Shown here: in pieces, positions 8,288 through 55,109 of the stretch
Layout of the letters: each line of letters opens with the position of its first letter
How positions within the stretch are numbered: the first letter of the stretch is position 1
From: Candidatus Omnitrophota bacterium
GTDB taxonomy: Bacteria > Omnitrophota > Gorgyraeia > Zapsychrales > Zapsychraceae
Reading direction: 5' to 3'
NCBI GenBank assembly: GCA_029261055.1
Contig: JAJDCA010000071.1
Span: forward strand, 89,778-153,777
Length of the DNA: 64,000 nucleotides
Translations under genes and position numbers: made by a program
The notes under the pieces: model-generated
Database searches by the model: none
What the model saw: the letters and a program-made list of their open reading frames with translations, nothing else
What the model was told of the DNA's origin: nothing

Positions 8288-9304
8288 ATGACTTTTTTAT
8301 TATCATTAATCATAGTTATTTTTGTTTTTCTGGTTATTCAGTGTGCTAAAAGAATAGCAAGGCAAATAGAGTTGACTGGTCGGGAAGAAATAAAGAATGC
8401 TAAAGAAGCGCATAATCAATTAATTCGGAAAAAAGAAAGTTTAAGTAAAGAAAAGTATGCTTTGGAAGGTCAAGCTTTAGAAATTTTTACTTTATATGAA
8501 ATTACAAAAGAAATTACGAAGAGTTTAAACGAGCAAGATGCCTTTGATATTTTTAAACAAAAATTAAGCTTACATACAGTCTTTGAAGAATGTCTTTTTT
8601 TGGCCCCTTCTTCGCCTTCCATTAATGAATTAAAAAAATCAGAAGAGTATTTTATTTTTACTCTCCAGGAAAAACGGAAAAAAATTGGGTATTTGGCTAT
8701 TAAAGGGGTTCCTGAACAAGACAAAGAAAAAATAATGATTTTGGGTCATCAATTTGCTTTGGCCATTAGAAGGGTTAAGCTTTATCAAGAAATAGAGAAA
8801 GTGGCTATTACAGATAGTCTAACAGAGGTTCAGACACGTCATTATGCCTTAGTCCGTTTTACTGAAGAGATCAATCGTTCAAAAGAACGTAAAATTAAAA
8901 TGTCATTTCTTATGATTGATGCAGATTTTTTTAAGAGTATTAATGATGAATATGGGCATTTAACGGGGGATCAAGTTTTAAAAGAAATAGCCGCTATTAT
9001 TAAAGAAAATATTCGGGAGATTGATATTGCCGGCCGGTACGGTGGTGAAGAGTTTTGTGTTGTCCTTCCAGATACAGATCGTGAAGGGGCTCAGTATGCA
9101 GCTGAACGTATCCGTTCTGCCACAGAGCAAGCCTTGATTAAGGCCTACGACACACAGATTAAAACAACCGTGAGTGTCGGTATAGCCACATTTCCGGAAG
9201 ATGGAAAAAGTATGGAAGAGTTGATCGATAAGGCCGATTGGGCCCTTTATCGCGCCAAAAAACAAGGACGAAACAGGATTTGTTCATTTGGGGTGTATGA
9301 GTGA
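8288..9304 (+). CDS. Diguanylate cyclase (TM / coiled-coil / GGDEF)
   Basis: N-terminal TM helix, then NDEYGHLTGD ... RYGGEEFCVVLPD (GGEEF). A tandem paralog of the upstream gene. Confidence 0.85.
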   Translation: MTFLLSLIIVIFVFLVIQCAKRIARQIELTGREEIKNAKEAHNQLIRKKESLSKEKYALEGQALEIFTLYEITKEITKSLNEQDAFDIFKQKLSLHTVFEECLFLAPSSPSINELKKSEEYFIFTLQEKRKKIGYLAIKGVPEQDKEKIMILGHQFALAIRRVKLYQEIEKVAITDSLTEVQTRHYALVRFTEEINRSKERKIKMSFLMIDADFFKSINDEYGHLTGDQVLKEIAAIIKENIREIDIAGRYGGEEFCVVLPDTDREGAQYAAERIRSATEQALIKAYDTQIKTTVSVGIATFPEDGKSMEELIDKADWALYRAKKQGRNRICSFGVYE

Positions 9305-24208: not shown

Positions 24209-27200
24209 ATGTTTTTTTTAGAAAATAACCGCAAAAATGGTTTGTATCGTGTATTTTCAGTATTTTTAGTATTTGCATTCATATTTACCAGTATTATTCC
24301 TCCTAGTTATGGGCAAAATGCTCCACAAACTATATTAAATTTACCTATTCCAGGGGCATTTGTGTCATCTACCGATGTATTTTATCCGGCGATGGTTAAA
24401 GGTATAACCCTCCACCCTGAAAATCCGTTGCGGTTTGATTTTGTGGTGGATACTGGTGCAACTGGCATGAAACGAGCGGATGTATTAAACGCAGAAATTA
24501 CCAAGCTAGTGAAATATTTTTTGGCTTCGTTGACAGTTCCCGAGAAAGAAATGTGGGTCAACTTGAGTCCCGATGAGCCGGACCGAATTATTGCCGAAGG
24601 GCTTGGTAGAACGGATATGGGGCGGGATATGTTGGGGCAGGATTATATGCTCAAGCAGCTTACCGCAAGTTTGATGCATCCGGAAGAAGATTTAGGTCAA
24701 GAGTTTTGGAATCGTGTTTACGCCCGTGCGCAAGCCGAATACGGAACGACCGATATTCCGATGGATACCTTTCACAAAGTCTGGATTGTACCCGAGAAGG
24801 CCGTCGTGTACGAGCATGAAGAGACGGCCACGACGTATGTGTTAGAGAGTAGGTTGAAGGTTATGTTGGAGGAAGATTATCTCGCCGCGTCCAATAACGT
24901 AGGGGCGAATCCACGTATTCGCCCAAATCAAGGGCGAAAACAGGGTTTCGCCCCTACGACATCCATCATCCGTGAAATCCTCATCCCCGAAATCCAACGC
25001 GAAGTCAACGAAGGATCAACTTTCGCCAATCTCCGCCAGATCTACCATTCAATGATCCTCGCCGCGTGGTACAAACGAAGCCTGAAACAGTCTCTGCTTG
25101 GCCAAGTCTACGTCGACCAAAACAAAACCAAAGGCATCACCACCGAAGACGAACACGTTACGCAAAAAATTTACGATCAATATATTGAATCCTTCAAAAA
25201 AGGCGTTTACGACTACATCAAAGAAGATTACGACCCAACGACAAATCAAATCATCCCCCGCAAATACTTCTCCGGTGGGTTTGCCGCGGATTTCTCGATA
25301 TTGCGCGCATTAAAATCATCAATTACCAGGATAGCCCCCACTCAAATATTTTCAGACGAAGACAACGCCATCCTAAGCGCCCAATTCGATTTAGCAAGTT
25401 TGGGAAAAAAGACTGATCTATCCTTTTTGGACTCAGCCATGAAGACGGAGCGAGAAGCGTTGAAGAAAGCTCTACGGAAAAAAGTTGTGCAGAATTTTAA
25501 AGGGTTACAGGGTAAAGGTCATATTAATATTTTGTGGGTCGAAGATGACGAAGAATTGACTGATGCATATAAAAAAGAGCTAGAAAATGATAAATATAAA
25601 ATAGAGTGGATTAAAAGTGGAGAAGACGCTTGGCAATATGTCCGGAATAATTATGCAGAAATTGACCTTATTATTACGGATTTAGACTTAGATGGAGAAA
25701 TGTCAGGATCAGATTTAATTGATGAGTTAAACAATGAAAAAAATAACGAAGTGTCTATCATTCCTATCCTTATACTAACAGCAGGGCAAGCTGTAGGGGC
25801 CTTAAGGGGGCCTTTAAAAAGAGCTACGAATAATTTTATCGAAATTTTTCGAAAGGTTGGAAGAATTAGCGAATATATAGCAAAAGTCAAAAATTTCATC
25901 GAAAATCCTCCGGATGATTTGTCGATGATGGTTAGGGGGGGTAATAAGGGGGGTGGAATAGATTTTTTTAAGGTGAGCGGAGAGGTAAGAAAAAAAATAT
26001 ATCAATTAAAAAATCAATATGCGGATACGACGGATTATACGATTACACAAGGCACTTTTGGGTATTCAAGAAAAGAGAATAGTAATAAAAGTTTTGTGGC
26101 GATTACCCCTGATGATTCAGGAAATAGTTTGATTTATGTTCAGCAGGAAAGAGGGAGGAAAGTTTTTGTGTTTCAGGGGCGTGTGCCTAGTGAGTCTGGT
26201 CTTTCAGCGTGGGAACCTGAAGGAAGGCAGATACAAAGCGTGAAAGAGGTGGAGATTGCCTTAGAGGATTTTATTCGAGGACGAAAATCTAAATTAGCAG
26301 AGGAAAAACTTAAGACGGAGGCGCGTGAAAAAGAATTGGATGCTCTTGCGAGAGAAGAACGTATACAAGACAAGCAAGACAATCCTCTTGCTTCGGTTGC
26401 AGAGATTTTTACAGAAATGAATCCCACAAAAAAAGAACATAAATATACCGTTATAACGGTAAAAGGAGAAGTTTCTTATGAAGGATTTGTGTATGAAAAA
26501 AAACCTTATCCAGGCGCCGATGAGATGTATTACGGCTTAGTTGCCTACCAGTATTACGATGAGATTTATATCAAGAAGGGATATATTAAAAAAAGATTTT
26601 TTAATGAATTGGGTCCTGAAGCAGATCCTTATTATTCACTTTTTCCGCATGAAAATTTGACGGAAAAAGTATATTGGGCTCTTGATAATATAGATCAACA
26701 AAAGGTTCAGGGCATCATTAAAGAATTTATTGAAGAGCAAGATGTTCTACGTAATCAGCCTGAAAAGGAAATAGAGTTTGTGAAAATTCAGCCTTCAAAT
26801 GAAAAGAGGGAAAAAAAGGTTCGAAATGTTAAAGGTGATGTTCCGAAGAAAAAGATTGTGAATATGAATAAAATTAAAAAGGATCTCGAGGCAGGCCGTA
26901 TCGCAGAGGTATTACAAGATTTTAAGGAGGATGAGTTTTACGCTATAAAAGGTTTTTTTATAGACGAAAAAGACCGAGACGAAAATGCTTCTTCTGTCGG
27001 TAATTCTATTGGTTGGCTATTTGTTTATTTTCTGGAATACCTTCGCAATGAATATGCCGGTTTTGAGTATCCAAAGTATATAAAAATAGGATACAACCTA
27101 AATAAAGTAAGTGGTGATGATGAAAGTAGCTTTATGAGTGAGTTTTATGAGGGGGTTGAAGAGTACTTAGAAAAATATAAGGCTCCTTTACAAAAATCTA

Positions 27201-27634
27201 ATTTTTTAGATAAAAATCCTTTAGGAGATAGGAAAAAGTATGCTCTTGCAGATAATCATCCATATATAAATATTAGAAAGTATTTTCAATTTGTAGACGA
27301 GGCAATGTTAAATATAGACGATAAGAAAAGCCTTGGCGGGATTAACTTGGACGCGGCGATGTTGGATTTGCAGGTGAGACGTGATGGTAACGGAGTGCCG
27401 TTGCCGTTTTCATTGCAGCCGGCGGATTTGGGGATGCGGGTTCAGGGGTTTTATCCGATTCTCAACAGTGTGACGCCAGTCACTTTGCTGCAGCTTGGAT
27501 TGAATAGTCCAGTTGGTGCGCCTCCACCGGAAGATGCTTCCTCTGCGAAAGATGCGTCTACCTTTCTGGATTTAAGCTATTCCTTCACCACCAAAACCCG
27601 CGATCCGTGGGATAGGGTTATATTTTATGTATAA
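24209..27634 (+). CDS. Giant-protein paralog (1141 aa) with an embedded CheY-like receiver domain
   Basis: Signal peptide or anchor, then a ~320-aa module about 65-70% identical to the N-terminus of ORF 10240-16905. A receiver-like segment (ILWVEDDEELTD...LIITDLDLDGEMSG...IPILILTA) spans about 25525-25870. A coiled-coil K/E-rich region follows, then a C-terminal module shared with the first giant ORF (GGINLDAAMLDLQVRRDGNGVPLP...). Confidence 0.9.
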   Translation: MFFLENNRKNGLYRVFSVFLVFAFIFTSIIPPSYGQNAPQTILNLPIPGAFVSSTDVFYPAMVKGITLHPENPLRFDFVVDTGATGMKRADVLNAEITKLVKYFLASLTVPEKEMWVNLSPDEPDRIIAEGLGRTDMGRDMLGQDYMLKQLTASLMHPEEDLGQEFWNRVYARAQAEYGTTDIPMDTFHKVWIVPEKAVVYEHEETATTYVLESRLKVMLEEDYLAASNNVGANPRIRPNQGRKQGFAPTTSIIREILIPEIQREVNEGSTFANLRQIYHSMILAAWYKRSLKQSLLGQVYVDQNKTKGITTEDEHVTQKIYDQYIESFKKGVYDYIKEDYDPTTNQIIPRKYFSGGFAADFSILRALKSSITRIAPTQIFSDEDNAILSAQFDLASLGKKTDLSFLDSAMKTEREALKKALRKKVVQNFKGLQGKGHINILWVEDDEELTDAYKKELENDKYKIEWIKSGEDAWQYVRNNYAEIDLIITDLDLDGEMSGSDLIDELNNEKNNEVSIIPILILTAGQAVGALRGPLKRATNNFIEIFRKVGRISEYIAKVKNFIENPPDDLSMMVRGGNKGGGIDFFKVSGEVRKKIYQLKNQYADTTDYTITQGTFGYSRKENSNKSFVAITPDDSGNSLIYVQQERGRKVFVFQGRVPSESGLSAWEPEGRQIQSVKEVEIALEDFIRGRKSKLAEEKLKTEAREKELDALAREERIQDKQDNPLASVAEIFTEMNPTKKEHKYTVITVKGEVSYEGFVYEKKPYPGADEMYYGLVAYQYYDEIYIKKGYIKKRFFNELGPEADPYYSLFPHENLTEKVYWALDNIDQQKVQGIIKEFIEEQDVLRNQPEKEIEFVKIQPSNEKREKKVRNVKGDVPKKKIVNMNKIKKDLEAGRIAEVLQDFKEDEFYAIKGFFIDEKDRDENASSVGNSIGWLFVYFLEYLRNEYAGFEYPKYIKIGYNLNKVSGDDESSFMSEFYEGVEEYLEKYKAPLQKSNFLDKNPLGDRKKYALADNHPYINIRKYFQFVDEAMLNIDDKKSLGGINLDAAMLDLQVRRDGNGVPLPFSLQPADLGMRVQGFYPILNSVTPVTLLQLGLNSPVGAPPPEDASSAKDASTFLDLSYSFTTKTRDPWDRVIFYV

Positions 27635-43303: not shown

Positions 43304-44938
43304 ATGAATGATAAATCAATCAAAATTGGACAAGAGTTGCTGGAGAGAAGGCTCATATCTCAAGAACAGCTACTTGAGGCGCTCAGTATTCAGAAAGAAG
43401 ATAAGAGAATGCTGGGTCAAATTTTACTTGCGCAAGGGTTTCTTTCCGATGAAGCATTAACAGAAGCTTTGGCTGATATTTATCAAATACCTTTTATCAA
43501 TTTAAACCAAGCTAAGATTGATCAATCCGTCATCGATTTAATTCCTATTGACATTTTAAGACGCCACAATGTTTTACCAGTTCGGTTAGAAAATCAAAAC
43601 CTTTTTATTGCCATCCATGATCCTCTTGACCTTTCCGCTATTCAAGAAATTCAATATATCACAGGACATCAGCCCCAGCTTTATCTTGCAACATTAAAAG
43701 ATATTTGCACGCATTTGGATAAGTTTGTCGATACTGTGCATACCCTCCACGGGAGCAGGGAGCAAGCTCACACGGACGATGATGATGTTCCGGTTATTAA
43801 TTTGGTGGATTCTATTATCAGTTCGGCGATCACAGAGCGAGCTTCCGATATTCACCTGGAACCTCAAAAGGATAATATGCGTGTCAGGTTTCGGATAGAC
43901 GGGACGCTTTATGAAAAGAATTTAGTTACAAAGACTTTACAAAGGCAAGTTATCTCGCGTCTTAAAATTATTTCAGGTATGGATGTGACGGATACCAGGC
44001 GACCTCAGGATGGGCGTTTTACACCAGAAAAATATCCTCAGTATAATTGTAGGGTGTCTACTCTTCCGGATATACTTGGTGAAAATATGGTTATTCGTCT
44101 TTTAAACCGTAATACCACGGCTTTGTCCTTTGAAGAATTAGGGATGAGCCCTGAGGAAACGCATAAGATAAAAACTTTATCTGCATCTCCTCACGGCATT
44201 ATTCTTCTCACAGGGCCAACCGGAGCCGGTAAGACCACGACACTCTATTCTATCCTTAATTTTCTTAATCAAATCGAAAAATGCATTATCACGGTTGAAG
44301 ATCCTGTCGAATACCAGTTACCCGGAATTAATCAAACAAATATTAATAATCTTGCCGGATATAGCTTTGCTTCAGCCATTAGAAATATTTTACGCCATGA
44401 TCCGGATATTATTATGATAGGTGAAATTCGTGACACAGAAACAGCTGAAATTGCGATACGCGCAGCACTGACAGGCCATCTTGTTTTGTCAACATTGCAT
44501 ACGAATTCGGCGGCTGGTGCCATTATGCGTTTGTTGGACATGAATATTGCTCCTTTTCTTTTAAGAGCCTCTTTGATCGGCGTCATTGCACAGAGGTTAG
44601 TGAGAAGGCTTTGTCCTCATTGTCATACAGAATATGAAGCGAGTGATGACATTTGCCATTCTATTGAGGGTTCAATTTCTCCTGGGGCCACGCTTGCCTC
44701 TGCAGGGCAGTGCGAAAAATGCTTTCAGACCGGATTCCACGGGCGCGTGGGGCTTTATGAAATTCTTCAGATTAATGACCCTATTCGGGAACTTATTTTG
44801 GAGTCGCCCAACAAAGAGGCCATTACAAAATTGGCTGTTTCTCAAGGAATGAAAACATTAAGGACAGCTGGATATAATAAAGCTTTAGCCAAATTGACCA
44901 CGCTGGAAGAAGTGCTGAGCATCACGGGTACAGAATAA
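43304..44938 (+). CDS. Type II secretion / type IV pilus assembly ATPase (GspE/PilB family)
   Basis: N-terminal GSPII_E_N-like domain, Walker A GPTGAGKTTT, Asp box, Walker B, His box, and the tetracysteine CPHC...C..C motif. Confidence 0.9.
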   Translation: MNDKSIKIGQELLERRLISQEQLLEALSIQKEDKRMLGQILLAQGFLSDEALTEALADIYQIPFINLNQAKIDQSVIDLIPIDILRRHNVLPVRLENQNLFIAIHDPLDLSAIQEIQYITGHQPQLYLATLKDICTHLDKFVDTVHTLHGSREQAHTDDDDVPVINLVDSIISSAITERASDIHLEPQKDNMRVRFRIDGTLYEKNLVTKTLQRQVISRLKIISGMDVTDTRRPQDGRFTPEKYPQYNCRVSTLPDILGENMVIRLLNRNTTALSFEELGMSPEETHKIKTLSASPHGIILLTGPTGAGKTTTLYSILNFLNQIEKCIITVEDPVEYQLPGINQTNINNLAGYSFASAIRNILRHDPDIIMIGEIRDTETAEIAIRAALTGHLVLSTLHTNSAAGAIMRLLDMNIAPFLLRASLIGVIAQRLVRRLCPHCHTEYEASDDICHSIEGSISPGATLASAGQCEKCFQTGFHGRVGLYEILQINDPIRELILESPNKEAITKLAVSQGMKTLRTAGYNKALAKLTTLEEVLSITGTE

Positions 44939-44957: not shown

Positions 44958-46157
44958 ATGATTAGTTATATTTACCAATTAAAAGACAATTTAGGGCGTA
45001 ATATATACGGCCTGACGGAAGCTAATGATAAAAAAGAAGTTAAGGTGAAGCTTCGGGAATCGGGTTTTTATTTTGTTTCCGCCAAACCTTACAATAAGAA
45101 AAAATTAGACAATATTAGATTTAAACCCAAAGAGTTAATTTTGTTTACGCAGAGGCTGTCTTCTCTAATAGCGGCCGGAATTCCTATGTTATCCGTGATG
45201 ACCATTCTTTGGCGGCAATCGGAAGATAAAAATATACAGTTAGTTATTAGTTGTATTAAAAATAAGTTAGCGGAAGGGAATAAAATATCGGACAGTATTA
45301 AGCTTTTTCCAAAGATTTTTCCACCTATTTATCATTCCCTTATTAGTGTAGGGGAGACAAGCGGGACGCTTGTGCTCGTTTTGGACAAATTGTTAAGCTA
45401 TTTGGAGTTTAAATTTAATCTTAAAACAAAGATAAAAAAAGCCACGCTTTACCCCTTGGCGGTTATTGTTTTTTCTTTTGTTGTTCTTTATGCTATGTAT
45501 GCTTATGTTGTTCCAACATTTCAAAGAGTGCTATTTAAAATGAAGGTAGAGTTACCTATGTTGACACGGATTATTTTAAAAATGTCAGAATTTGCACGTT
45601 CGCCGGTGTTCGTTTTGATTAGTTTGGTTACTCTAATAAGTATGGTTTTTATTTTTCGATATTTACGGAAAAATAAAAATACGGCATATTATCTCGATGC
45701 TTTTATTATTAAATTACCTGCTGTCGGGCCTCTTTTTATGGCCTTTTCGTTGAGTCAATTTATTCGTTCTTTAAGTATTTTGTTGGGAACTGGAGTTGGC
45801 GCCTTATTAAGTTTAGATAAGGCCAATTCAACGATTAACAATCATAAGCTTAGAAAAGAAATAGGCGCCATTAAAAAAGATGTTGAAGTAGGCGTCCCGA
45901 TGTACGAAGCCTTTAAAAAAGTGCGAGAATTTCCGGTTATGCTGGTTGAAATGATCGGTGTCGGTGAATCTTCCGGGACAATGGTGGCTCTTTTGGAAAA
46001 GACAGCGGATACCTTCGATAATGAAATAGATTATCAGCTTAACAAAATTTTGACCTTACTAGAACCTGCCCTGATCATTTTTGTAGGATTTGTGGTATTT
46101 ATTACGCTTTTGGCGATATATTTACCGATGATTTCTCTCTGGCAAAATATTAGATAA
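44958..46157 (+). CDS. Type II secretion / type IV pilus platform protein (GspF/PilC family)
   Basis: Two repeated T2SSF domains and three TM segments; about 400 aa; immediately downstream of the ATPase. Confidence 0.85.
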   Translation: MISYIYQLKDNLGRNIYGLTEANDKKEVKVKLRESGFYFVSAKPYNKKKLDNIRFKPKELILFTQRLSSLIAAGIPMLSVMTILWRQSEDKNIQLVISCIKNKLAEGNKISDSIKLFPKIFPPIYHSLISVGETSGTLVLVLDKLLSYLEFKFNLKTKIKKATLYPLAVIVFSFVVLYAMYAYVVPTFQRVLFKMKVELPMLTRIILKMSEFARSPVFVLISLVTLISMVFIFRYLRKNKNTAYYLDAFIIKLPAVGPLFMAFSLSQFIRSLSILLGTGVGALLSLDKANSTINNHKLRKEIGAIKKDVEVGVPMYEAFKKVREFPVMLVEMIGVGESSGTMVALLEKTADTFDNEIDYQLNKILTLLEPALIIFVGFVVFITLLAIYLPMISLWQNIR

Positions 46158-46324
46158 CCTCTTAGCAATACGGTAAAATTGTATAATGAAGGTCAAAAAT
46201 GGTTTTTTTAATTTTTTTTAAATTTATTTTTTTGCTTAATTATTCATAACTATTTGAAACTAATATAGTTGAAACAAATTTAAAAGTCTAAAAGAATGCG
46301 TTTTCTTGGATAGTTCTCAGGCAC

Positions 46325-46352
46325 TTGACAATGGAAACTTAAATGTTATACT
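46325..46352 (+). promoter_or_regulatory. Sigma70 promoter with extended -10 driving the riboswitch-pilin transcript
   Basis: TTGACA (46325-46330), 16-nt spacer, TG-n-TATACT (46344-46352). Confidence 0.6.
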
Positions 46353-46371
46353 TCAATCGACTGATAAAGAA

Positions 46372-46456
46372 ATTTGATAAAGGTAAACCATTTGAGAGAA
46401 TGGGACACAAAGCCAAGGACCCTGAGCGCTAGATTCAGGGCAGCCGGTTGCCAAAG
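46372..46456 (+). ncRNA. c-di-GMP-I (GEMM) riboswitch aptamer
   Basis: GGTAAACCATTTGAGAGAATGGGACACAAAGCC... aligns almost base-for-base with the Vc2 GEMM core GGCAAACCATTCGAAAGAGTGGGACGCAAAGCC. P2 hairpin CCATT-GAGA-AATGG has a GNRA loop. P3 hairpin is CCCTGA...TCAGGG. Confidence 0.75.
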
Positions 46457-46466
46457 TTTTTAAAAA

Positions 46467-46505
46467 GGCCTATTCTCAAAAATGGAGAATAGGTCTTTTT
46501 TTTGT
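46467..46505 (+). terminator. Intrinsic terminator / riboswitch expression platform
   Basis: GGCCTATTCTC / GAGAATAGGTC hairpin followed by nine T. The 5' arm can alternatively pair with aptamer segment TTGAGAGAATGG. Confidence 0.7.
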
Positions 46506-46547
46506 GGGTAAATTATTTTTAACCAACCAATAATAAGGGGAGATAAA

Positions 46548-46967
46548 ATGAACACACAACACAAAAAACGTAAATTCGTTACAAAAATGCAACAAGGGTT
46601 CAGTTTGATAGAACTTTTGGTCGTTTTGGTCATTATTGGGGCTATTTTGGCTTTAATTTTACCGAATACCTTTAGAGCTATCCGAGAAGCAAATGAAAAA
46701 ACATGTCAATCGCATCATCGTTCAGTAATATCGGCCGTAGCGTTGTGTTATTCAGATACGAGGGATTATGGAGAGTGTAGTACCGTGGCAGCTCTTTTGA
46801 CCGGAAACTATTTAGATGCTGATCCCATATGCCCGATTGTTGATAGCCAAATAACTGGTGTTAACAGTAGTGATGCAGGGATTTCACCAACTGTCTCTAC
46901 TGATCATTGGCCTAATTGGCCAGTATTAGCAAATGACGATCACATTGATGGTGGTGGCGATGAGTAA
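46548..46967 (+). CDS. Type IV pilin/pseudopilin with prepilin-type N-terminal methylation domain
   Basis: Leader ...KMQQG|FSLIELLVVLVIIGAILALI (class III signal peptide, G/F cleavage site, Glu+5). Cys-rich C-terminal domain. Confidence 0.8.
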   Translation: MNTQHKKRKFVTKMQQGFSLIELLVVLVIIGAILALILPNTFRAIREANEKTCQSHHRSVISAVALCYSDTRDYGECSTVAALLTGNYLDADPICPIVDSQITGVNSSDAGISPTVSTDHWPNWPVLANDDHIDGGGDE

Positions 46968-47073
46968 TTGATTTAATAATTTGAAGTTTGGCTGACCGTT
47001 CTTTCCTTATAGTAGATATACAACCGGAAAGAACGGTCAGAGTAAACAAATTTATATTAAGCATGTACAGCCT

Positions 47074-48600
47074 TTGGGCTGGATAAGGCAAAAGAAAATG
47101 AATAAAGGATACTTAACAATCGGATTAACATCAACCCAAATACGCTATGCTTATGTGGCAAAGGAAAAGGGAAAGCATCAGCTTCAGAAGGCAGGCAGCG
47201 TTGATTTTAAGCTGGATGTGCTGGCTGAAGGGGCTTTGAGTCAGGCTATATTAGAGGTAATCGCCAATGAAGGGATTCATCCACAGAAGCTTTTCTTTAC
47301 GATTGCGCACAAAGATACCCTAATCCGGGAGGCTATTTTACCGGAAGTCAAAAATAAGGAATTAAATGAAATTATTCCTTCAGAAATAGAAAAAAACCCT
47401 CACTTTGCCAATCAGGATTTTGAGTTCATTTTTCATAAATATAAAAGTCAGAAAGACAAACAACGTATTATTTTTGCGGCTCTTGCTGAAAGAATTTTAC
47501 AGTACCTTATAAAAGAAATTGAAAATATTAAAATAGATTGCCAGCATTTAGAAATTGCGCCTTTAAATTTAAAAGATTTGATTTCAACCAAGGATTCTGA
47601 AAATGAAACACAAATTTTGCTTGTCATTCATGATCAGGTAAGTCACGTCATCATTTTTCATCAGGAGCAGTATAGGTTATATTATCAAATGGTGACGGGC
47701 ATAAAAAATCTTTTCCCTCAAGAGAAACAAGGTTTAAATGAACAGGCTTTACTTGGGTTATCAGGGGAATTGCGCCGTGTGATTAAATCGTATCTTGCAG
47801 AATATAAGGAAGAGAGTATTTCTCGTGTTTGGCTGGTTTGGGATAATGCACAAGGCCAGGGATTGCAGCAAGGGCTTCAGGAAAAATTAGAATTAGATGT
47901 GAAAAATTTATCCGTAGATCAATTGGATGGCCAGCCCATTCAATATGACGAACAGGATTTGGAAATGGATAATTCTATTTTTACATTGCAATTAACGCCG
48001 TTAGTTTATCATCTTAAAAAACAATGCGAACAATTCTCGTTTATCCATTTCTTGTCCAAAACATTTAGCAGGAAGCATTGCAAAGAAGTGGTGGCTATGT
48101 CTGCGGTATGTTTAATTATTATATCTTCCGTTTTCATTTTATTGGGAGCCAAGTTTCATCAGGTAAAAACCCGTGTGCTTGCGCAAACGACTGAGGTTTT
48201 AAGTGAAATTCAACGTGTCGAGGGTGAGTCCCAACAATTATTTGATCAAAGGCAATCTTATGTGCGGTCACGTAACCGTTTGTTAAAACAGGCGGCTTAT
48301 GTCAAAGAAATTAATAGTGTCAGTTGGTCTGAGGTGTTGGCCGTGGTTGCCCAGGAAATTCCGGATAACCTAGCCTTAACATCATTTGACCTGAATCAGT
48401 CCGGGAGCACAAAATTTAAAGGAGAAGCCCTCGCCATAGAGTCGGTTTCGGAAATGATCCGTCAGGTCGATGATTCGGCCATACTCCATAATGGGCAATT
48501 TGATTTTCTTAGGGAAGATCAGATAAAGGGTAATAAAATATTTCAATTTGGTATTTCTGCGAACCTATCCAAGCAGGAAGGAGCAACAGATGACAAATAA
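47074..48600 (+). CDS. PilM-like actin-fold ATPase fused to a PilN-like TM/coiled-coil region
   Basis: N-terminal ~330 aa with the PilM-like pattern (IGLTSTQIRYAYV...). A TM helix VVAMSAVCLIIISSVFILLGA, then a coiled-coil periplasmic part. TTG start; an ATG alternative at 47098. Confidence 0.55.
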   Translation: MGWIRQKKMNKGYLTIGLTSTQIRYAYVAKEKGKHQLQKAGSVDFKLDVLAEGALSQAILEVIANEGIHPQKLFFTIAHKDTLIREAILPEVKNKELNEIIPSEIEKNPHFANQDFEFIFHKYKSQKDKQRIIFAALAERILQYLIKEIENIKIDCQHLEIAPLNLKDLISTKDSENETQILLVIHDQVSHVIIFHQEQYRLYYQMVTGIKNLFPQEKQGLNEQALLGLSGELRRVIKSYLAEYKEESISRVWLVWDNAQGQGLQQGLQEKLELDVKNLSVDQLDGQPIQYDEQDLEMDNSIFTLQLTPLVYHLKKQCEQFSFIHFLSKTFSRKHCKEVVAMSAVCLIIISSVFILLGAKFHQVKTRVLAQTTEVLSEIQRVEGESQQLFDQRQSYVRSRNRLLKQAAYVKEINSVSWSEVLAVVAQEIPDNLALTSFDLNQSGSTKFKGEALAIESVSEMIRQVDDSAILHNGQFDFLREDQIKGNKIFQFGISANLSKQEGATDDK

Positions 48601-49177
48601 AGGGATCAATGAAACAGCTTATATATCCTGCGGGGTCATAGTCATATTACTCATGCTGATACCTTTTGCCAATTTATATGGGTTGATGAAAGTGGAAAAG
48701 ACGTTAAAAAATGAAGAGGCGCGTCTGGAAGTGCTTCAGAAAAATGTGCGTATGTTGACCACTTCGAAAAAAAGGCTCATAAAAGAAAAAGAAGAATTTT
48801 CCGAGTTGTTGTTTCAAGACCGCGATATTCCGGATTTTCTGGATGATATTTCTCAAATGTCCCGTAATCTTAATTTGAATATTCTCGACATGAAAACAAA
48901 AGATTTTTATATCATCACGCCTGAAGAGGAAGATGATGGATCACAGAACAAAACGGAAGAGACGGTTCAAGAGGTTTTATCAGCCTTACCTATTGATATT
49001 AAGGTAACAGGACCTTTTACATCAATCGTTCAATTGTTTGATGAAATCGAAAATTATCGGCAAATAACGAATATTAAAAATATCAGGATCAGGAATATCA
49101 AGAAATATCCGACCCTGGAATGTTTTTTTACAATCGTTATTTATAGTCTAAAACAACAACAAATGGTGCAAAAATGA
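48590..49177 (+). CDS. PilO-like pilus assembly protein
   Basis: RBS GGAAGGAG. One TM helix followed by a coiled-coil and an alpha/beta region, PilO-like architecture at the expected position. Confidence 0.45.
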   Translation: MTNKGINETAYISCGVIVILLMLIPFANLYGLMKVEKTLKNEEARLEVLQKNVRMLTTSKKRLIKEKEEFSELLFQDRDIPDFLDDISQMSRNLNLNILDMKTKDFYIITPEEEDDGSQNKTEETVQEVLSALPIDIKVTGPFTSIVQLFDEIENYRQITNIKNIRIRNIKKYPTLECFFTIVIYSLKQQQMVQK

Positions 49178-49650
49178 AAAAAATTATCTTATTTTTTATA
49201 ATTTTACAGTTTGCTTTAACCGGTTGTGAATTTTTTCCAAGCAAGGACACAGATAAAAAAGTTCCTGAAAATCAAGCGTTGATTATGAGCGATGACCTGG
49301 ACATTTCACAGGAAGAAAAAGATCAATTGGTCAGTCTTTTTAAAAAGGCAAGGCCGCAACAGCGTATTATTGAAAAAGATCCTTTTAAGCCGATTATTAC
49401 AAAGCATAAATTAGAGCAAAAAGACAACGTTTTGTCAGGAGATTCCAAAAAAGACTTCCTTATAAATATCGAATATCTTGGTGTGGTTCAGATAGGCGAT
49501 AGTTATTCGGCATTGATTTTAGTAGGACAGAAAAAAGGAGTTTATAGTCTCAAAGATAAGATAAAACAATTAACCATTACGGATATTAAGAATGACCACA
49601 TCATGCTGGTTGATGGGTCGGAACAATATCAAATACAAAGGAAAAGATAA
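49174..49650 (+). CDS. PilP-like lipoprotein
   Basis: Lipobox LTGC; about 160 aa; positioned between the PilO-like and secretin genes. Confidence 0.35.
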   Translation: MKKIILFFIILQFALTGCEFFPSKDTDKKVPENQALIMSDDLDISQEEKDQLVSLFKKARPQQRIIEKDPFKPIITKHKLEQKDNVLSGDSKKDFLINIEYLGVVQIGDSYSALILVGQKKGVYSLKDKIKQLTITDIKNDHIMLVDGSEQYQIQRKR

Positions 49651-51050
49651 TGAAATTAAATATTCTAAAATTATTGTTCATTATGTTGTTTCTGTCATTG
49701 GTGTCATTTAACAATGATGTTGTTTGGGCTGAAGATGAAGACATCAGGCAGCAGAGTATGGACGGCCTGGTAGAAAAATTGGTCATTGACGATGAGTACC
49801 TTAAGGTAAAGATGCTTGAACGGGTAGAGCTTCCGGCACCTTTACCGTCGCAACCGGAGGGGCCTTCAACCGTTTTAACAGATAAAGCTATTATCCATAG
49901 TGCTCTTGGTGCGGATAATTTGGAGAAACGGATCAATCTTGACTTTGATGAAGTCACTTTAAAGGATATTTTTATGACGCTTGGAAAAGCGGCGGATATC
50001 AATGTCTTGATCGCTCCGGATTTGAGAGGGCAAATATTGGATTTGCATTTAAAGCAAGTTACGTTGATTGAAGCGTTTTTGTTGGTTTCCAATGCCTATG
50101 ATTTAGGGTTCAAACAGGTTGAAAATTCTCTATATATCGACAGCAGAGAAAAACTGCGGGATGAAAACCTGGTGTCAAAAGTAATCAAACTGCGAAATAT
50201 TAATGTCGTCGAAGCGCAATCTATGGTTGACGAAATTGTAGATAAGCTTACTATAAGTGAAGACATCAATACTATGACGGTTGTTGGTACGCCTCAGGAA
50301 ATCGTTAAGGTGGAAGATATTATTAAAAGAATTGACAAGCCTCAGCCTCAAGTAATTATTGAAGCCAAGGTGATTGAAGTCAACCGGGATGCTTTAAAAG
50401 ATCTTGGTGTTGATTGGCAAGACCAAATATCCATTGATACACAAGAAAATGGACGGAACAGTACTTTGAGCACCGATGGTTCAGGACTGGATTCGATTTT
50501 TAAATTCAACAATTTTCAGCGTCAGCCGTTTCTTTTTAACACAACGTTAAAGATGCTGGAGAACCAAAATAAGGCGAAAATTTTATCTTCTCCTAGGGTT
50601 TCGACACTCAATGACCGTGAGGCCGTTATTTTTATCGGTGACCGTATTCCTTATACGATTACATCCGTAACCGGGGGTGTTGCCACGACCGAAGTTGAGT
50701 GGGCCGAGCCCGGCATCCGATTGACGATAACGCCTTCTATTATTGAGGATGACTTTGTAGTTATGAAGGTGGAACCGGAAGTTAGTTTTATCTTTGCTTT
50801 TCGCGGGCCTAATGACGAGTTTCCTCATATTAAAACAAGAGAGGCCACCGCTTTTGTGCGGGTGAAAAATAATCAACCTTTTATCATCGGTGGATTATTG
50901 AGTCAGGAAGATAAAAATAATTTATTTAAGGTTCCGTTCCTGGGTGACGTGCCTCTTTTAGGTAACCTTTTTTCATATGAGAAGCATACGATTGTCGATA
51001 CGGAACTTATTATTACCGTTATTCCAAAAATTATCAGTAGCGATAATTAA
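49650..51050 (+). CDS. Secretin (PilQ/GspD family)
   Basis: Signal peptide, N0/N1-like domains, and the secretin C-domain with VPFLGDVPLLGNLF and VIPKII motifs. Confidence 0.85.
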   Translation: MKLNILKLLFIMLFLSLVSFNNDVVWAEDEDIRQQSMDGLVEKLVIDDEYLKVKMLERVELPAPLPSQPEGPSTVLTDKAIIHSALGADNLEKRINLDFDEVTLKDIFMTLGKAADINVLIAPDLRGQILDLHLKQVTLIEAFLLVSNAYDLGFKQVENSLYIDSREKLRDENLVSKVIKLRNINVVEAQSMVDEIVDKLTISEDINTMTVVGTPQEIVKVEDIIKRIDKPQPQVIIEAKVIEVNRDALKDLGVDWQDQISIDTQENGRNSTLSTDGSGLDSIFKFNNFQRQPFLFNTTLKMLENQNKAKILSSPRVSTLNDREAVIFIGDRIPYTITSVTGGVATTEVEWAEPGIRLTITPSIIEDDFVVMKVEPEVSFIFAFRGPNDEFPHIKTREATAFVRVKNNQPFIIGGLLSQEDKNNLFKVPFLGDVPLLGNLFSYEKHTIVDTELIITVIPKIISSDN

Positions 51051-51060
51051 GGCGGGACAG

Positions 51061-53319
51061 ATGAGACGATTAAATACACAAAAAGGTTTTTCTCTGACGG
51101 AAATGATTGTGGGGAGCATTATAGTCGCGATTGTAAGTGCGATAGGTTATTCTGCCGTCAGGGGGTTGTCACGTGCCGATGAAATCACAGAAAACAGAAT
51201 CGCGGCGGTGAATCTTCTTCAAAAAAGTCAGGAAGCAATTCGGGCCGTAGCGCAGACAAATTACGATAATTTGGGCCCCAATGGCGCTGTGTGTGACTTT
51301 ACTCCCAATGATACATGTGGTTTTGATAATGATCTTACAGCAGACTATCCGATTTTTACAAGGACATTAACCGTTCAAGATGCCACCGGAACCACAGAGC
51401 TAAAAAATGTTTTTGTGAGTGTGTCCTGGACAGAATTTAATCCCCAAACAGGAGCTGCGGTTAATAAAAGTTTGGATTCCGTAACTTACATATCCCGCCC
51501 TCCTGATCCGCTGCCCGGGAACATTGCGGGAAGGGTGCTTGGTCCCGATGGTCCTATCAGCGGTGTTACGATTACAGCCACAAGGATCAACCCTAGTACA
51601 GGTGAAAAGCTCGAAAGTGAATTGAGAACATCCGAAACCCCCGGCGTTACTTCAGGCGGGGGTAATAATAATGTCAATTATGATTTTTCTTCCCCGGAGC
51701 GTAACAGAGCAGGGTTTCGTCTTCAACCGGCCGTAAATTGGCTTGTCCAAGCTACAGATGAAAATTTTACACAAAATCCTTCTGAAGGAATAACAGCACA
51801 AGTTTCTTCAGGTGAGGAAAGACTTGTCCCCATTAATATGATTCCCAATCCGGAAAATGGCACCATCACGGTTAATATCGATAATATTGGTGTGCCAGCA
51901 ACATTTAAGGATTTTTTAAGCTCGAGTTCTGTTGCTCTGTATCAGAATGGTACTCAAATCGAGCGGCAGGGTTCAGGAGGATCTTCCTTTACATTTGAAG
52001 TTGAATTTGAGGATGAGAAAAAACGATGTTTTACGGTGGCGACTCATGATGCCTATAAATCGGGGTTGGCCGGAAGTTTTCCTAATTGTGCAGCTCAAAG
52101 TCAGACAACGAATAATCCTGACGGTTGGTCGTCCGCCGTATTCGTCAATGGTTCTGCTAATTGTGCTAATACCTGGGAGGGAAACAGTGATATTGACACT
52201 GTGTGTGTCAACCCGGGAAAAAATGAGATCGTAGGGGTTCGTCTCGTTGATGTTCCTACAGCTAAACTGGAAGGGGACTTTAAAGACAGCAAGGGGAGAG
52301 TTTTGGATTCTTCTGATTATAATTTTGCACGGGTATACATTCGGCCCTACGCATCTAAAGAGAAACTTAGATGGACAGGTTCTTCGGCATTTACTTATAA
52401 AAAAAGTGGCTATTACTACTCAAAAAAAATAAAAGGTAAAGGTGTTTATTCGATAGATATCCCGGCCAAACACAGCCTTTTCCCCCCTGACTCCAAAGAT
52501 AAGTTTTCAGCAGAGGGAATGATAAATGTGCCTCAAACAGAATGTTGTAATAAGGATGGAAGTCAACCTATTTGGACAGGGTGGAAGACTATTACGACCA
52601 GTATAAAATCGGAAGGAAAATACCAAAAAGATTTTATATTTAAAAATCTTACTGCAAAAAATATTGAGTGCGGAAACATCAAGGGGAAGGTGTACGATGG
52701 AAAGAATAAAACGCCATTGTCAAATGCTACGGTAGTGTTTCAAAAAGGCATAACATCAAAAGGAGATGGAGGGTATAAGTATCTATGCAAAGATCCAAAG
52801 CTTCTTCCGATTGAATTTAAAAAATATTCTTACACAGCGTCTAAAAAAGATAATAAGAAAAAAGATAATAAGAAAAAGGATATTTATTATCCTTTTAAAA
52901 GCGGAGGAAATAACATTTATACCGCACATAAACCAGTAAAGTTAAAAGTTGATTCAATCACAATTAAAACAGCGCCAGACATTTATCTTTGGCCGATAAA
53001 GACAGGTGAGGTAAAGGTGACGGTGAAGGATACAAATGGTAATGATTTAAGTGGAGCTAGTGTAAAGCTTACCGGACCAAAGAATACTTCCGGTTCTACA
53101 GGGAGCAATGGCATTAAAACTTTAAAAAATGTGCAAGAGTCATGGCCGGCACCGGGAGCCGTAGGTAAAAGTCAATATAACCAGAAAAAATCGAATTATA
53201 CGGTGAACGTTAGTTTAGATAATTATAAAAGTTATAAAAAGACAGGTATTGTTGTTAAGGCAGGGAATAGAACAGAGGTGGAGGCAACTTTAATATATAA
53301 TGGCAGCGGCGGTATGTAG
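51061..53319 (+). CDS. Large (~750 aa) prepilin-leader protein, putative minor pilin/tip adhesin with CarboxypepD_reg-like domains
   Basis: MRRLNTQKG|FSLTEMIVGSIIVAIV prepilin signal. Repeated GxxxGxVxxxxGxPxxGVTIT-type beta-sandwich segments. A short KKDNKKKDNKKKD repeat. Confidence 0.6.
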   Translation: MRRLNTQKGFSLTEMIVGSIIVAIVSAIGYSAVRGLSRADEITENRIAAVNLLQKSQEAIRAVAQTNYDNLGPNGAVCDFTPNDTCGFDNDLTADYPIFTRTLTVQDATGTTELKNVFVSVSWTEFNPQTGAAVNKSLDSVTYISRPPDPLPGNIAGRVLGPDGPISGVTITATRINPSTGEKLESELRTSETPGVTSGGGNNNVNYDFSSPERNRAGFRLQPAVNWLVQATDENFTQNPSEGITAQVSSGEERLVPINMIPNPENGTITVNIDNIGVPATFKDFLSSSSVALYQNGTQIERQGSGGSSFTFEVEFEDEKKRCFTVATHDAYKSGLAGSFPNCAAQSQTTNNPDGWSSAVFVNGSANCANTWEGNSDIDTVCVNPGKNEIVGVRLVDVPTAKLEGDFKDSKGRVLDSSDYNFARVYIRPYASKEKLRWTGSSAFTYKKSGYYYSKKIKGKGVYSIDIPAKHSLFPPDSKDKFSAEGMINVPQTECCNKDGSQPIWTGWKTITTSIKSEGKYQKDFIFKNLTAKNIECGNIKGKVYDGKNKTPLSNATVVFQKGITSKGDGGYKYLCKDPKLLPIEFKKYSYTASKKDNKKKDNKKKDIYYPFKSGGNNIYTAHKPVKLKVDSITIKTAPDIYLWPIKTGEVKVTVKDTNGNDLSGASVKLTGPKNTSGSTGSNGIKTLKNVQESWPAPGAVGKSQYNQKKSNYTVNVSLDNYKSYKKTGIVVKAGNRTEVEATLIYNGSGGM

Positions 53320-53329
53320 GGGGCGTAAG

Positions 53330-53824
53330 ATGGCTATACGAAAAAATAACGCTGGGTTTACTCTTATGGAAATGGTGGTGGTGTTGGCTATACTGGGGAC
53401 AGCGATAGCCTCCTTTCACGGTATTTTTATCAACAACTGGACAGCGTTGGACACTTTTTCTGTCAGGGCTAACCTCAGTCAGGAAATGGATGATATTGTG
53501 GATACCATATCCTATGATGCCCGGAATGCTCAGAGGGGCTTGATGGATATTGCCACCGATCAAAAATCCGTCGTTTTTTCAACGCCTAATCTTTCGTTAT
53601 GGACAACGGCCAGTTATACTATGGCACAGGATGGAACATTAACTATGGTGCGCAGTACGGCAGACGGTGATGTGCAAACAAGAATACTATCAAGAAATGT
53701 GGATTATGCTAATTCTACTTTTAATAATAACAGTAATTTTACCATTAACCTGGAGTTAACAAACGATGTTTTCGGTCGACCCATTACAATCGATACGTCC
53801 ACAGAAATCTTTGCGCGTAATTAA
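53330..53824 (+). CDS. Pseudopilin (GspH/PilV-like) with prepilin N-terminal domain
   Basis: MAIRKNNAG|FTLMEMVVVLAILG class III signal. Confidence 0.7.
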   Translation: MAIRKNNAGFTLMEMVVVLAILGTAIASFHGIFINNWTALDTFSVRANLSQEMDDIVDTISYDARNAQRGLMDIATDQKSVVFSTPNLSLWTTASYTMAQDGTLTMVRSTADGDVQTRILSRNVDYANSTFNNNSNFTINLELTNDVFGRPITIDTSTEIFARN

Positions 53825-55109
53825 AGATATTTTTTGTGGGCATAAAGGAAAGAAAAATAATCAAGGCGGGTTCCTTTTAGTAGGTGCTATTTTTCTTATG
53901 TTGTTTTTGGGGTTGATCATCATGTCAACCTTTATCAATTCCGATATGCAATTTGAATCGGCAAGGATGCGCATACCGGCGCAACAGGCGTTCTACATTG
54001 CTGAGGCCGGTATTGAATATTCGATCAATCAACTCCGTCAGGATATTCTTTTTAATCCAGAGGATGCTGATCGTCAACAAACTGTATTGGGTATGCAAAA
54101 TGAGGAAGATGAGGAGGAAGATCGGGAAGTAAAGGGAACGTTCACACTTACATTAACCCCGACATTGGATGATGAAGCTGAAGAGGTCATAAATGATACG
54201 GGCCTTAGAACGGTAAAGATTAGCTCTCTAGGTACAGAGGTTGAAAATAATATTCCGCGTACCGTAACCGTTATTGTTAATGTCATCGATCCAGCCCGAT
54301 TTTTTGTATCAACCCCCGGTGAATTAGGAGTTGCGAGTGGTGCCACTATCGGCAGCAGTATTTTTGGAGGAGATGTTGTATTTAATATTGACGACCCCAG
54401 CCAGAATATTATTATTGGTGGCAAAGTTCAATTTATGAACAATATTACGGCAACCTCTACAGATATTTCTACCATATCCGTCGATGATCAGGATTTTAGG
54501 CAAGATGAATGTGAAAAACCATTTGATTTAAATCAATGTATTGAAAGCCAGCATGGCGTTGAGCGACAACAAAATGTTTCTTATCCTGGACTTGACTTAC
54601 CAAGATATGAAGCCTTAGCAGCGATAGTAGGTGAATCACATAAAGGTGATCTCACAATTACTAGTTTTGATGATGACTTGGGAGGAGAGGAGGGTCTTCT
54701 TTACGTAGATGGCAATGTGACGATTAGCGGTGAGTTTGAAAACACGCTGACGATTGTGGCGACAAAGGACATTATTATTGAGGGCAATATAGGGCCTTCA
54801 GAAGATTCTTTAAAAATTGGTCTGTTTGCTTCGGGGGACGTCCGTATCCCGGCGTCTGTTTCTGATCTCAATATTAAATCCACTTTTATCTGGGCGGATG
54901 GCGGTGTTTTTAAGGCTGAGGGAGGCCAGCGTCCGGCAGATAGTAGTTTGATATTTGATGGCGTTATTGCGGTCCGGGGCCAGGAGGGGCAATCGGGCGT
55001 AGATCTCAATGTTTTTCAAAATAGAACTTATACGTATGATACAGAAATCCGCAACTCCGGTATTTTCTATAGCAATATTGTCAGTCTCTCTTCCTGGATG
55101 GAACAATAA
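53766..55109 (+). CDS. PilX-like minor pilus component (start uncertain)
   Basis: GGFLLVGAIFLMLFLGLIIM hydrophobic N-terminal segment as in PilX N-domains. The listed ATG overlaps the upstream gene by 59 nt. Confidence 0.4.
   Translation: MFSVDPLQSIRPQKSLRVIKDIFCGHKGKKNNQGGFLLVGAIFLMLFLGLIIMSTFINSDMQFESARMRIPAQQAFYIAEAGIEYSINQLRQDILFNPEDADRQQTVLGMQNEEDEEEDREVKGTFTLTLTPTLDDEAEEVINDTGLRTVKISSLGTEVENNIPRTVTVIVNVIDPARFFVSTPGELGVASGATIGSSIFGGDVVFNIDDPSQNIIIGGKVQFMNNITATSTDISTISVDDQDFRQDECEKPFDLNQCIESQHGVERQQNVSYPGLDLPRYEALAAIVGESHKGDLTITSFDDDLGGEEGLLYVDGNVTISGEFENTLTIVATKDIIIEGNIGPSEDSLKIGLFASGDVRIPASVSDLNIKSTFIWADGGVFKAEGGQRPADSSLIFDGVIAVRGQEGQSGVDLNVFQNRTYTYDTEIRNSGIFYSNIVSLSSWMEQ

Follow-up and report, generated by a model that had tools for sequence, protein, structure and literature searches.

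The control of pilus genes by class I cyclic di-GMP (c-di-GMP-I, or GEMM-I) riboswitches has been known since 2007, and pilM, pilO, pilQ, pulF and cpaA were already among the targets when the GEMM motif, named for genes of the environment, membranes and motility, was first described (PMC1950547). The element reported here is a further example of this well-known class. It lies in a 64,000 nucleotide (nt) stretch of contig JAJDCA010000071.1 from a Candidatus Omnitrophota bacterium (hereafter, the window), directly upstream of a type IV pilin gene. We consider it most likely, with a probability of about 0.7, that the 5' leader of the major pilin mRNA contains a class I c-di-GMP riboswitch and that this riboswitch turns transcription OFF under kinetic control, as Cd1 does in Clostridioides difficile. 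On this model, c-di-GMP is predicted to end transcription before the pilin gene, and presumably has the same negative sign in vivo.

Cd1 (Cdi-1-3) precedes the flgB operon of C. difficile and has an aptamer of the same GEMM-I family as the window element, followed by a downstream terminator that does not overlap it. Aptamer and terminator coexist, both compete with an antiterminator, and transcription is terminated on c-di-GMP (OFF) (PMC9262584, PMC6366702). Every class I riboswitch of C. difficile that is functional, seven in all, is an OFF switch (PMC6366702). The targets of Cd1 are flagellar genes in a Firmicute, whereas the window element belongs to a diderm candidate phylum and precedes a type IV pilin gene, uses its whole P2 hairpin as the switching sequence, and has a function that is predicted rather than measured. 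The pilM riboswitch of Geobacter metallireducens (GEMM-Ib) shares the GEMM-I fold, the location in a type IV pilus leader and a terminator-based mechanism, but it has an A at the position of G20, senses 3',3'-cyclic GMP-AMP (cGAMP), regulates pilMNOPQ rather than pilin, and is an ON switch, its terminator being unable to form together with the aptamer (PMC9262584). The window element has a G at that position and a non-overlapping terminator. In C. difficile, Cdi-2-4 is a c-di-GMP riboswitch found directly upstream of the major pilin gene pilA1 that also works by termination within the leader, but its aptamer is of class II and its sign is opposite, c-di-GMP turning pilin ON (PMC6366702). Vc2 of Vibrio cholerae shares with the window the core GG(C/U)AAACC...GNRA...GGGAC(G/A)CAAAGCC...GCC, with equivalents of G20, A47 and C92 (PMC6140456). 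In Vc2 the loop is GAAA and is accompanied by an 11-nt receptor, and regulation does not proceed through termination (PMC6366702). The window element has GAGA as its loop and lacks the receptor, and is followed by an intrinsic terminator. Finally, pilC/gspF-like genes of Synergistota and Oscillibacter (loci L044, L046, L050, L058 and L078) were found to be preceded by aptamers of the c-di-GMP-I clan (55.7-70.9 bits). The four aptamers in Synergistota/Thermovirgaceae metagenome-assembled genomes (MAGs) are 55-110 nt before the platform gene, and that of Oscillibacter (L078) is about 1.8 kb before it. In the window it is the pilin gene, and not the platform gene, that follows the aptamer, but these loci independently support a recurrent association of the riboswitch with pilus genes in different phyla.

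Searches of the open-access literature found no mention of Omnitrophota having a c-di-GMP riboswitch, and none of a class I element placed immediately ahead of a major pilin gene. Among pilin genes, the case studied best is pilA1 of C. difficile, a class II ON switch, to which the window would add a predicted class I OFF switch on the major pilin. Knowledge of the riboswitch class itself is unchanged by this example. What it offers is a testable and direct connection of type IV pilus production to c-di-GMP signalling in Candidatus Omnitrophota, a phylum without cultured members, for which genomes are the only source of physiological knowledge.

Identity of the aptamer and its probable ligand

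The whole window was scanned with the covariance models of Rfam 15 (Infernal, 4227 families), and the sole hit was to RF01051 (c-di-GMP-I/GEMM-I), with 61.3 bits against a gathering score of 35 (E 1.5e-9) and an alignment spanning the full length of the model (positions 1-87 of 87). An initial annotation, made by eye, had recognized a GEMM-I core and proposed this model as the one to scan with. All the aptamer elements that it quoted are present, and the 71-nt core string, from GGTAAACC to GGTTGCC, occupies exactly 46382-46452. Judged by its sequence, the element is a member of the class I c-di-GMP (GEMM-I) family, with a match far beyond chance, and it would be expected to bind c-di-GMP. A chance resemblance in AT-rich intergenic DNA has nothing in its favor beyond the missing orthologous copies described below, and is effectively refuted by an E-value that applies to 64 kb against 4227 families, and by the correct strand and position of the match relative to promoter, terminator and gene.

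In the alignment to RF01051, the ligand-contact columns hold G46382, A46409 and C46451, that is, G, A and C as in Vc2, and we take these to be the equivalents of Vc2 G20, A47 and C92 (with the Vc2 numbering mapped onto the Rfam model). In Vc2, G20 and C92 contact the two guanines of the ligand (PMC6140456). An AAA linker is found between the two hairpins (46409-46411), and the GAC junction nucleotides are likewise present. Such a linker is almost invariant in the GEMM family, the members of which have two adjacent hairpins, the first with a GNRA tetraloop (PMC1950547). The first hairpin of the window element, P2, is kept by compensatory changes, with a basal U-A pair replacing the consensus C-G and A-U/U-A pairs occurring within the stem, and is worth only -4.0 kcal/mol when folded alone. 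The second hairpin, P3, is present in every computed fold.

The initial annotation had made its case depend on the ability of P2 and P3 to form. Both form here, and both covary across a set of 17 GEMM-I sequences comprising the window and 16 others. Pairs were counted on the Rfam structure, as the default RNAalifold consensus of the 17-sequence alignment mis-drew the junction. With the Rfam structure, 90.6% of cells were paired, compared with 28-48% when the partners were slid by 1-3 columns, and the observed covariation score was reached in none of 500 shuffles. Two-sided changes occurred in eight pairs overall, including five of the six P2 stem pairs, and since the search pattern that yielded 11 of the 17 sequences had the U-A basal pair built in, the covariation is unbiased for the P2 stem and P3 only.

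It is very improbable that the aptamer recognizes a different dinucleotide, either 3',3'-cGAMP, as in GEMM-Ib, or the unknown ligand of the c-di-GMP-I-GGC variant (RF03167). GEMM-I does hide variants of altered specificity close to the main consensus (PMC7266159), and the Geobacter pilM riboswitch senses cGAMP (PMC9262584), but cGAMP riboswitches have an A at G20 (PMC6140456), where the window has G46382, and the c-GAMP class (GEMM-Ib) was rejected for lack of this required A. RF03167 matches 46373-46456 with 55.3 bits and, in E-value mode, with a lower E-value than RF01051. Its score is nevertheless below the curated gathering cut-off of 59, on which alone c-di-GMP-I-GGC was rejected, and the model also cross-scores ordinary GEMM-I sequences that have an A at the A47 column. 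The presence of nearby genes for GGDEF cyclases with GGEEF motifs is a further point in favor of c-di-GMP. For c-di-GMP-II (RF01786), the window contains no match that reaches the gathering score, and a search of 46100-47100 at E <= 1 was also empty.

As a separate observation on the models themselves, RF03167 exceeds its cut-off on six ordinary-looking GEMM-I sequences (L082, L084, L085, L090, L044 and L046), beating RF01051 by E-value, and these sequences share with the window aptamer an invariant A at the A47 column. Since RF03167 out-competes RF01051 on ordinary sequences, best-E-value assignments within this clan need care.

Expression platform and predicted direction of switching

The elements of the leader are arranged on the + strand in the order promoter, aptamer, terminator, ribosome-binding site (RBS) and pilin gene (Table 1), which places the aptamer in a 5' regulatory position. 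No open reading frame (ORF) of at least 60 aa overlaps 46158-46547 on either strand. The promoter-like site, TTGACA with a 16-nt spacer, is present as first annotated. It matches 11 of 12 consensus positions, has a proper extended -10, and is the top site within 45500-47500. Sites with at least 11/12 matches number 5 in the window compared with 3.0 +/- 2.1 in shuffles, which is not above chance, and the credibility of this promoter comes from its location and not from its score, similar matches not being rare in the AT-rich window. It is plausible from its position rather than proven by its match score, and is presumably used. The annotated gap of about 15 nt between promoter and core needs correction, as 29 nt actually separate the -10 hexamer from GGTAAACC, while the pilin RBS, AAGGGGAG, is found as described. 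Both the Shine-Dalgarno sequence and the ATG are unsequestered in every predicted fold. The TTGACA...TATACT pair occurs at 11/12 in three places in the window (9307, 46325 (+) and 60877 (-)). TATACT also serves as a -10-like box in the pilin spacers of relatives, and may be the preferred -10 variant of the clade.

The intrinsic terminator consists of an 11-bp hairpin with a 7-nt loop, the arms of which read GGCCTATTCTC (46467-46477) and GAGAATAGGTC (46485-46495) in the DNA, followed by a U8 tract (46496-46503). The hairpin is as initially annotated, but the tract has one residue fewer than the T9 given there. The core hairpin has an energy of -15.0 kcal/mol, and with its A/U extension this becomes -20.7 kcal/mol (z = -7.06). 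One motif scan of the region reported this same hairpin on the minus strand only. Since the aptamer ends at 46455 and the terminator stem starts at 46467, the two do not overlap, and the full-length minimum-energy fold holds P2, P3 and the terminator together.

An alternative pairing of the terminator 5' arm with the aptamer segment TTGAGAGAATGG, suggested in the initial annotation, proved to be real and statistically unusual. The whole P2 hairpin can pair with a strand made up of the terminator 5' arm and part of its loop (Table 1), giving an antiterminator duplex of -21.0 kcal/mol that was matched by only 1 of 2000 shuffles of the terminator strand. In an unrelated metagenomic GEMM-I leader (L087), the P2 3' strand likewise pairs with the terminator 5' arm. 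The growing transcript was folded in 2-nt steps (minimum-energy), and the refolding barrier was estimated by findpath. P2 persists until the 3' end reaches 46476, the antiterminator is the fold of lowest energy for 3' ends 46478-46492, as it also was in separate folds ending at 46480 and 46487, and the terminator appears only from 46496. With the polymerase positioned on the U tract, the emerged RNA extends to about 46490, and the antiterminator is then the minimum-energy fold. The estimated barrier for passing from antiterminator to terminator is about 17 kcal/mol.

This architecture, in which aptamer and terminator are compatible and the antiterminator competes, is like that of Cd1, and c-di-GMP should therefore cause termination, a direction that the initial annotation had left undecided. 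In the proposed mechanism, transcription would begin about 7 nt past the TTGACA-16-TGnTATACT promoter, and the aptamer would be finished about 25 nt ahead of the competing strand, giving a time window for c-di-GMP binding. If no ligand is bound, the terminator 5' arm and loop would invade the weak P2 (-4 kcal/mol) and form the two-part antiterminator, leaving the terminator 3' arm with its partner occupied, and the polymerase would read through. Pilin would then be made, possibly along with the products of the downstream pilMNOQ and minor-pilin genes. If c-di-GMP is bound, P2 and P3 would be locked around the ligand and the 5' arm would stay free, so that the 11-bp hairpin and U8 could form and transcription would stop at about 46500.

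A genuine c-di-GMP-I aptamer could also be part of an ON switch, or control translation or RNA stability rather than termination, but we regard this as unlikely here. As the terminator overlaps no aptamer strand, its formation cannot be blocked by a bound aptamer, and the minimum-energy fold contains both. The only strong competitor of the terminator uses P2, the very helix that is stabilized by the ligand, and the RBS is unpaired in all folds. On the other hand, class I precedents show that the sign is not transferable across species, Bc2 being ON and both Vc1 and Vc2 acting without termination, and pilA1 of C. difficile is turned ON by c-di-GMP (PMC6366702). The MshEN-type c-di-GMP motifs of PilB, the assembly ATPase encoded upstream (see below), would also fit a positive control of piliation.

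Related loci and the balance of evidence

Homologues of the PilC platform protein were sought in a collection of 5.8 billion proteins. All shared at most 52% identity with the window protein, and the closest named ones (39-50%) all belong to Candidatus Omnitrophota/Omnitrophica; these homologues and their loci are the basis on which the analysis assigned the phylum. A scan of genome contigs with the single PilC protein gave no match, and a PilC profile scan of genome contigs gave 80 loci, the 30 best of which (L001-L030, from MAGs) are Omnitrophota orthologues. Together with four close relatives obtained by exact protein look-up (L092-L095), these make up 34 orthologous loci with PilC identities of 39-52%. 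The gene order pilC-pilin-pilMN is kept in nearly all of the 30 Omnitrophota loci (at least 25) and in the four further close relatives. Rfam scans found an aptamer of the c-di-GMP-I clan in none of the 34 orthologous pilC-pilin loci, so the element is lineage-specific, and illustrates the gain of a riboswitch in one lineage before an otherwise conserved cluster.

The pilC-pilin spacers of the closest relatives are about 200 nt long (L092 3707-3903, L093 3707-3899, L095 3707-3907 and L001 4707-4918). They have the conserved boxes CTTGTT-N17-TATACT, then TTGATA...TACACT, and the RBS AGGAGGGG, without the aptamer core. Metagenomes were also searched with the pattern GGTAAACC-N4-GAGA-N4-GGGACACAAAGCC, which returned 11 other GEMM-I loci. 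None of the 11 has a pilin downstream, the readable downstream genes being unrelated (cytochrome-like CxxCH and surface proteins), and no relatives of this particular leader were found in the search. A GC-rich metagenomic contig (L088) carries tandem c-di-GMP-I aptamers at 287-361 and 592-670, about 230 nt apart on the same strand.

Several observations weigh against the OFF-switch model. At equilibrium, the ligand-free full-length RNA favors the terminator (-42.4 kcal/mol) over the antiterminator (-36.4 kcal/mol) by about 6 kcal/mol, and the model therefore needs kinetic control, which is only approximated by the stepwise folds and findpath. The lack of an aptamer at all orthologous loci leaves the expression platform without comparative or covariation support, and it is possible that the element is recently acquired or decaying. 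P3 has no 11-nt GAAA tetraloop receptor, the CUAA and UAUG positions being deleted in the alignment, and in comparison with the model it has one pair deleted and one that is non-canonical. Only about 50% of GEMM members carry such a receptor, usually with GAAA loops (PMC1950547), so its absence does not exclude membership of GEMM-I. To these points may be added the high score of the variant model RF03167, even though it is below the cut-off, and the opposite signs that would arise at two levels if an OFF switch on pilin were combined with the MshEN motifs of PilB.

An inactive or decaying aptamer, with the hairpin and U8 serving as a constitutive attenuator or as the plain terminator of the pilBC transcript, would account for the absence of the element from 34 of 34 orthologous loci, for the missing receptor and two imperfect positions of P3, and for a terminator that wins at equilibrium regardless of ligand. 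There is also precedent, in that 5 of the 16 c-di-GMP riboswitches of C. difficile are non-functional (PMC6366702). We nevertheless find it improbable, given a score that is 26 bits over gathering, the intact state of all highly conserved core positions, and a dedicated near-consensus promoter directly upstream. The precise match of the platform to P2 (1/2000 shuffles) would not be expected under decay, and an OFF switch remains the preferred model.

Table 1. Features of the pilin leader and its surroundings (window coordinates, except where another locus is named)
Feature	Position	Strand	Details
pilC-pilin spacer	pilC stop 46157, pilin ATG 46548	+	390 nt; holds promoter, aptamer, terminator, RBS
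Sigma-70-type promoter-like site	46325..46352	+	-35 TTGACA 46325-46330, spacer 16 nt
Extended -10, TG-n-TATACT	TG 46344-46345, hexamer 46347-46352	+	Predicted transcription start about 46359-46361
c-di-GMP-I (GEMM-I) aptamer	46372..46455	+	RF01051 covariance model
First aptamer hairpin, P2	46383..46408	+	Basal pairs G46383-C46408, U46384-A46407
P2 stem	46388-46393 with 46398-46403	+	6 bp, CCAUUU/GAAUGG; GNRA tetraloop GAGA 46394-46397
Second aptamer hairpin, P3	46411..46449	+	AGCC/GGUU, bulged A residues, GG/CC, CCCUGA/UCAGGG
Switching sequence, whole P2 hairpin CCAUUUGAGAGAAUGGG	46388..46404	+	Pairs alternatively with 46469-46486
Antiterminator partner strand	46469..46486	+	Terminator 5' arm CCUAUUCUC (46469-46477) and loop AAAUGG (46481-46486)
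Intrinsic terminator	46467..46503	+	11-bp stem GGCCUAUUCUC/GAGAAUAGGUC, 46467-46477 with 46485-46495
Shine-Dalgarno and start codon	46535..46550	+	AAGGGGAG 46535-46542, strong, six nt before ATG 46548
pilB, assembly ATPase	43304-44938	+	MshEN + T2SSE (Pfam)
pilC, platform protein	44958-46157	+	T2SSF (Pfam)
Type IV (pre)pilin	46548..46967	+	139 aa; Pfam N_methyl E 1.4e-7; synteny
Downstream pilus genes	47074..55109	+	pilM-pilN fusion, pilO, ORF without assignment, pilQ secretin (Pfam); then 780-aa N-methyl protein, 174-aa N-methyl protein, 447-aa ORF without assignment
GGDEF genes	6798-8156, 8288-9304		GAF-GGDEF and GGDEF; intact GGEEF motif in both
GEMM-I clan aptamers near pilC/gspF, other loci	L044 2967-3044, L046 3353-3436, L050 3360-3446, L058 3037-3123, L078 1598-1696		

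The pilus gene cluster and c-di-GMP signalling

The gene order around the riboswitch is pilB-pilC-(riboswitch)-pilin-pilMN-pilO-pilQ. The downstream gene was correctly recognized as a pilin in the initial annotation: it has an N_methyl motif and lies between pilB/pilC and pilMN-pilO-pilQ. Its product begins with the leader MNTQHKKRKFVTKMQQG, followed by FSLIELLVVLVIIG, with the processing site ...MQQG/FSLIELL, and displays the features of a class III signal peptide, namely G at -1, a hydrophobic N-terminus, E at +5 and the N-methylation motif. No convincing terminator was found between pilin and about 54.8 kb, and the downstream pilus genes could be co-transcribed with pilin, which would extend the regulated transcript across them. 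Just after the pilin stop codon (46991-47037) is a strong stem-loop with a 15-bp stem, CUGACCGUUCUUUCC/GGAAAGAACGGUCAG, and without a U tract; the spacer around it folds with -32.4 kcal/mol (z = -5.4). This structure may stabilise the RNA or act as a partial terminator, and in this way set how much pilin transcript there is relative to transcripts of the assembly machinery. The 780-aa protein encoded further downstream (50977-53319) combines an N-terminal prepilin N_methyl motif with a C-terminal CarboxypepD_reg-like domain and is unusually large for a (pseudo)pilin. Its ORF, as called, shares 74 nt with the 3' end of the secretin gene.

A second point of contact with c-di-GMP may be PilB. The MshEN c-di-GMP motif has been linked in other species to pilus biogenesis (PMC11731258), and residues 7-59 of PilB (43322-43480) hold two 24-residue motifs of this type, KIGQELLERRLISQEQLLEALSIQ and MLGQILLAQGFLSDEALTEALADI, which are 5 residues apart as in MshE. 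Relative to the consensus, copy 1 has I at position 2 of the motif and an R in place of G at position 10; copy 2 departs from it at position 1 (M), at position 11 (F) and at the final Q, which is I. The PilB proteins of close Omnitrophota relatives likewise have an MshEN domain. Given these motifs, the pilus motor may also sense c-di-GMP. A tentative and rather doubtful extension is that this lineage recently placed a class I OFF switch before pilin while keeping a PilB of MshEN type that is presumably activated by c-di-GMP. If true, c-di-GMP would act with opposite signs on pilin supply and assembly motor, an incoherent two-level circuit in which rising c-di-GMP would trigger a short-lived burst of piliation or keep pilus length in check. 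It would also be, as far as literature searches showed, the first riboswitch-controlled pilus described in the host-dependent nanobacterial phylum Omnitrophota.

The two GGDEF genes noted at first sight 38 kb upstream are both present, each with an intact GGEEF motif, and a functional link between them and the riboswitch is a reasonable inference from these motifs. Just downstream of this pair is an ORF of 2221 aa (10240-16905) for which Pfam gave only a sub-threshold HEAT-repeat match. A 1141-aa protein (24209-27634) has as its sole recognised domain a response-regulator receiver, which is located in mid-protein (residues 441-529).

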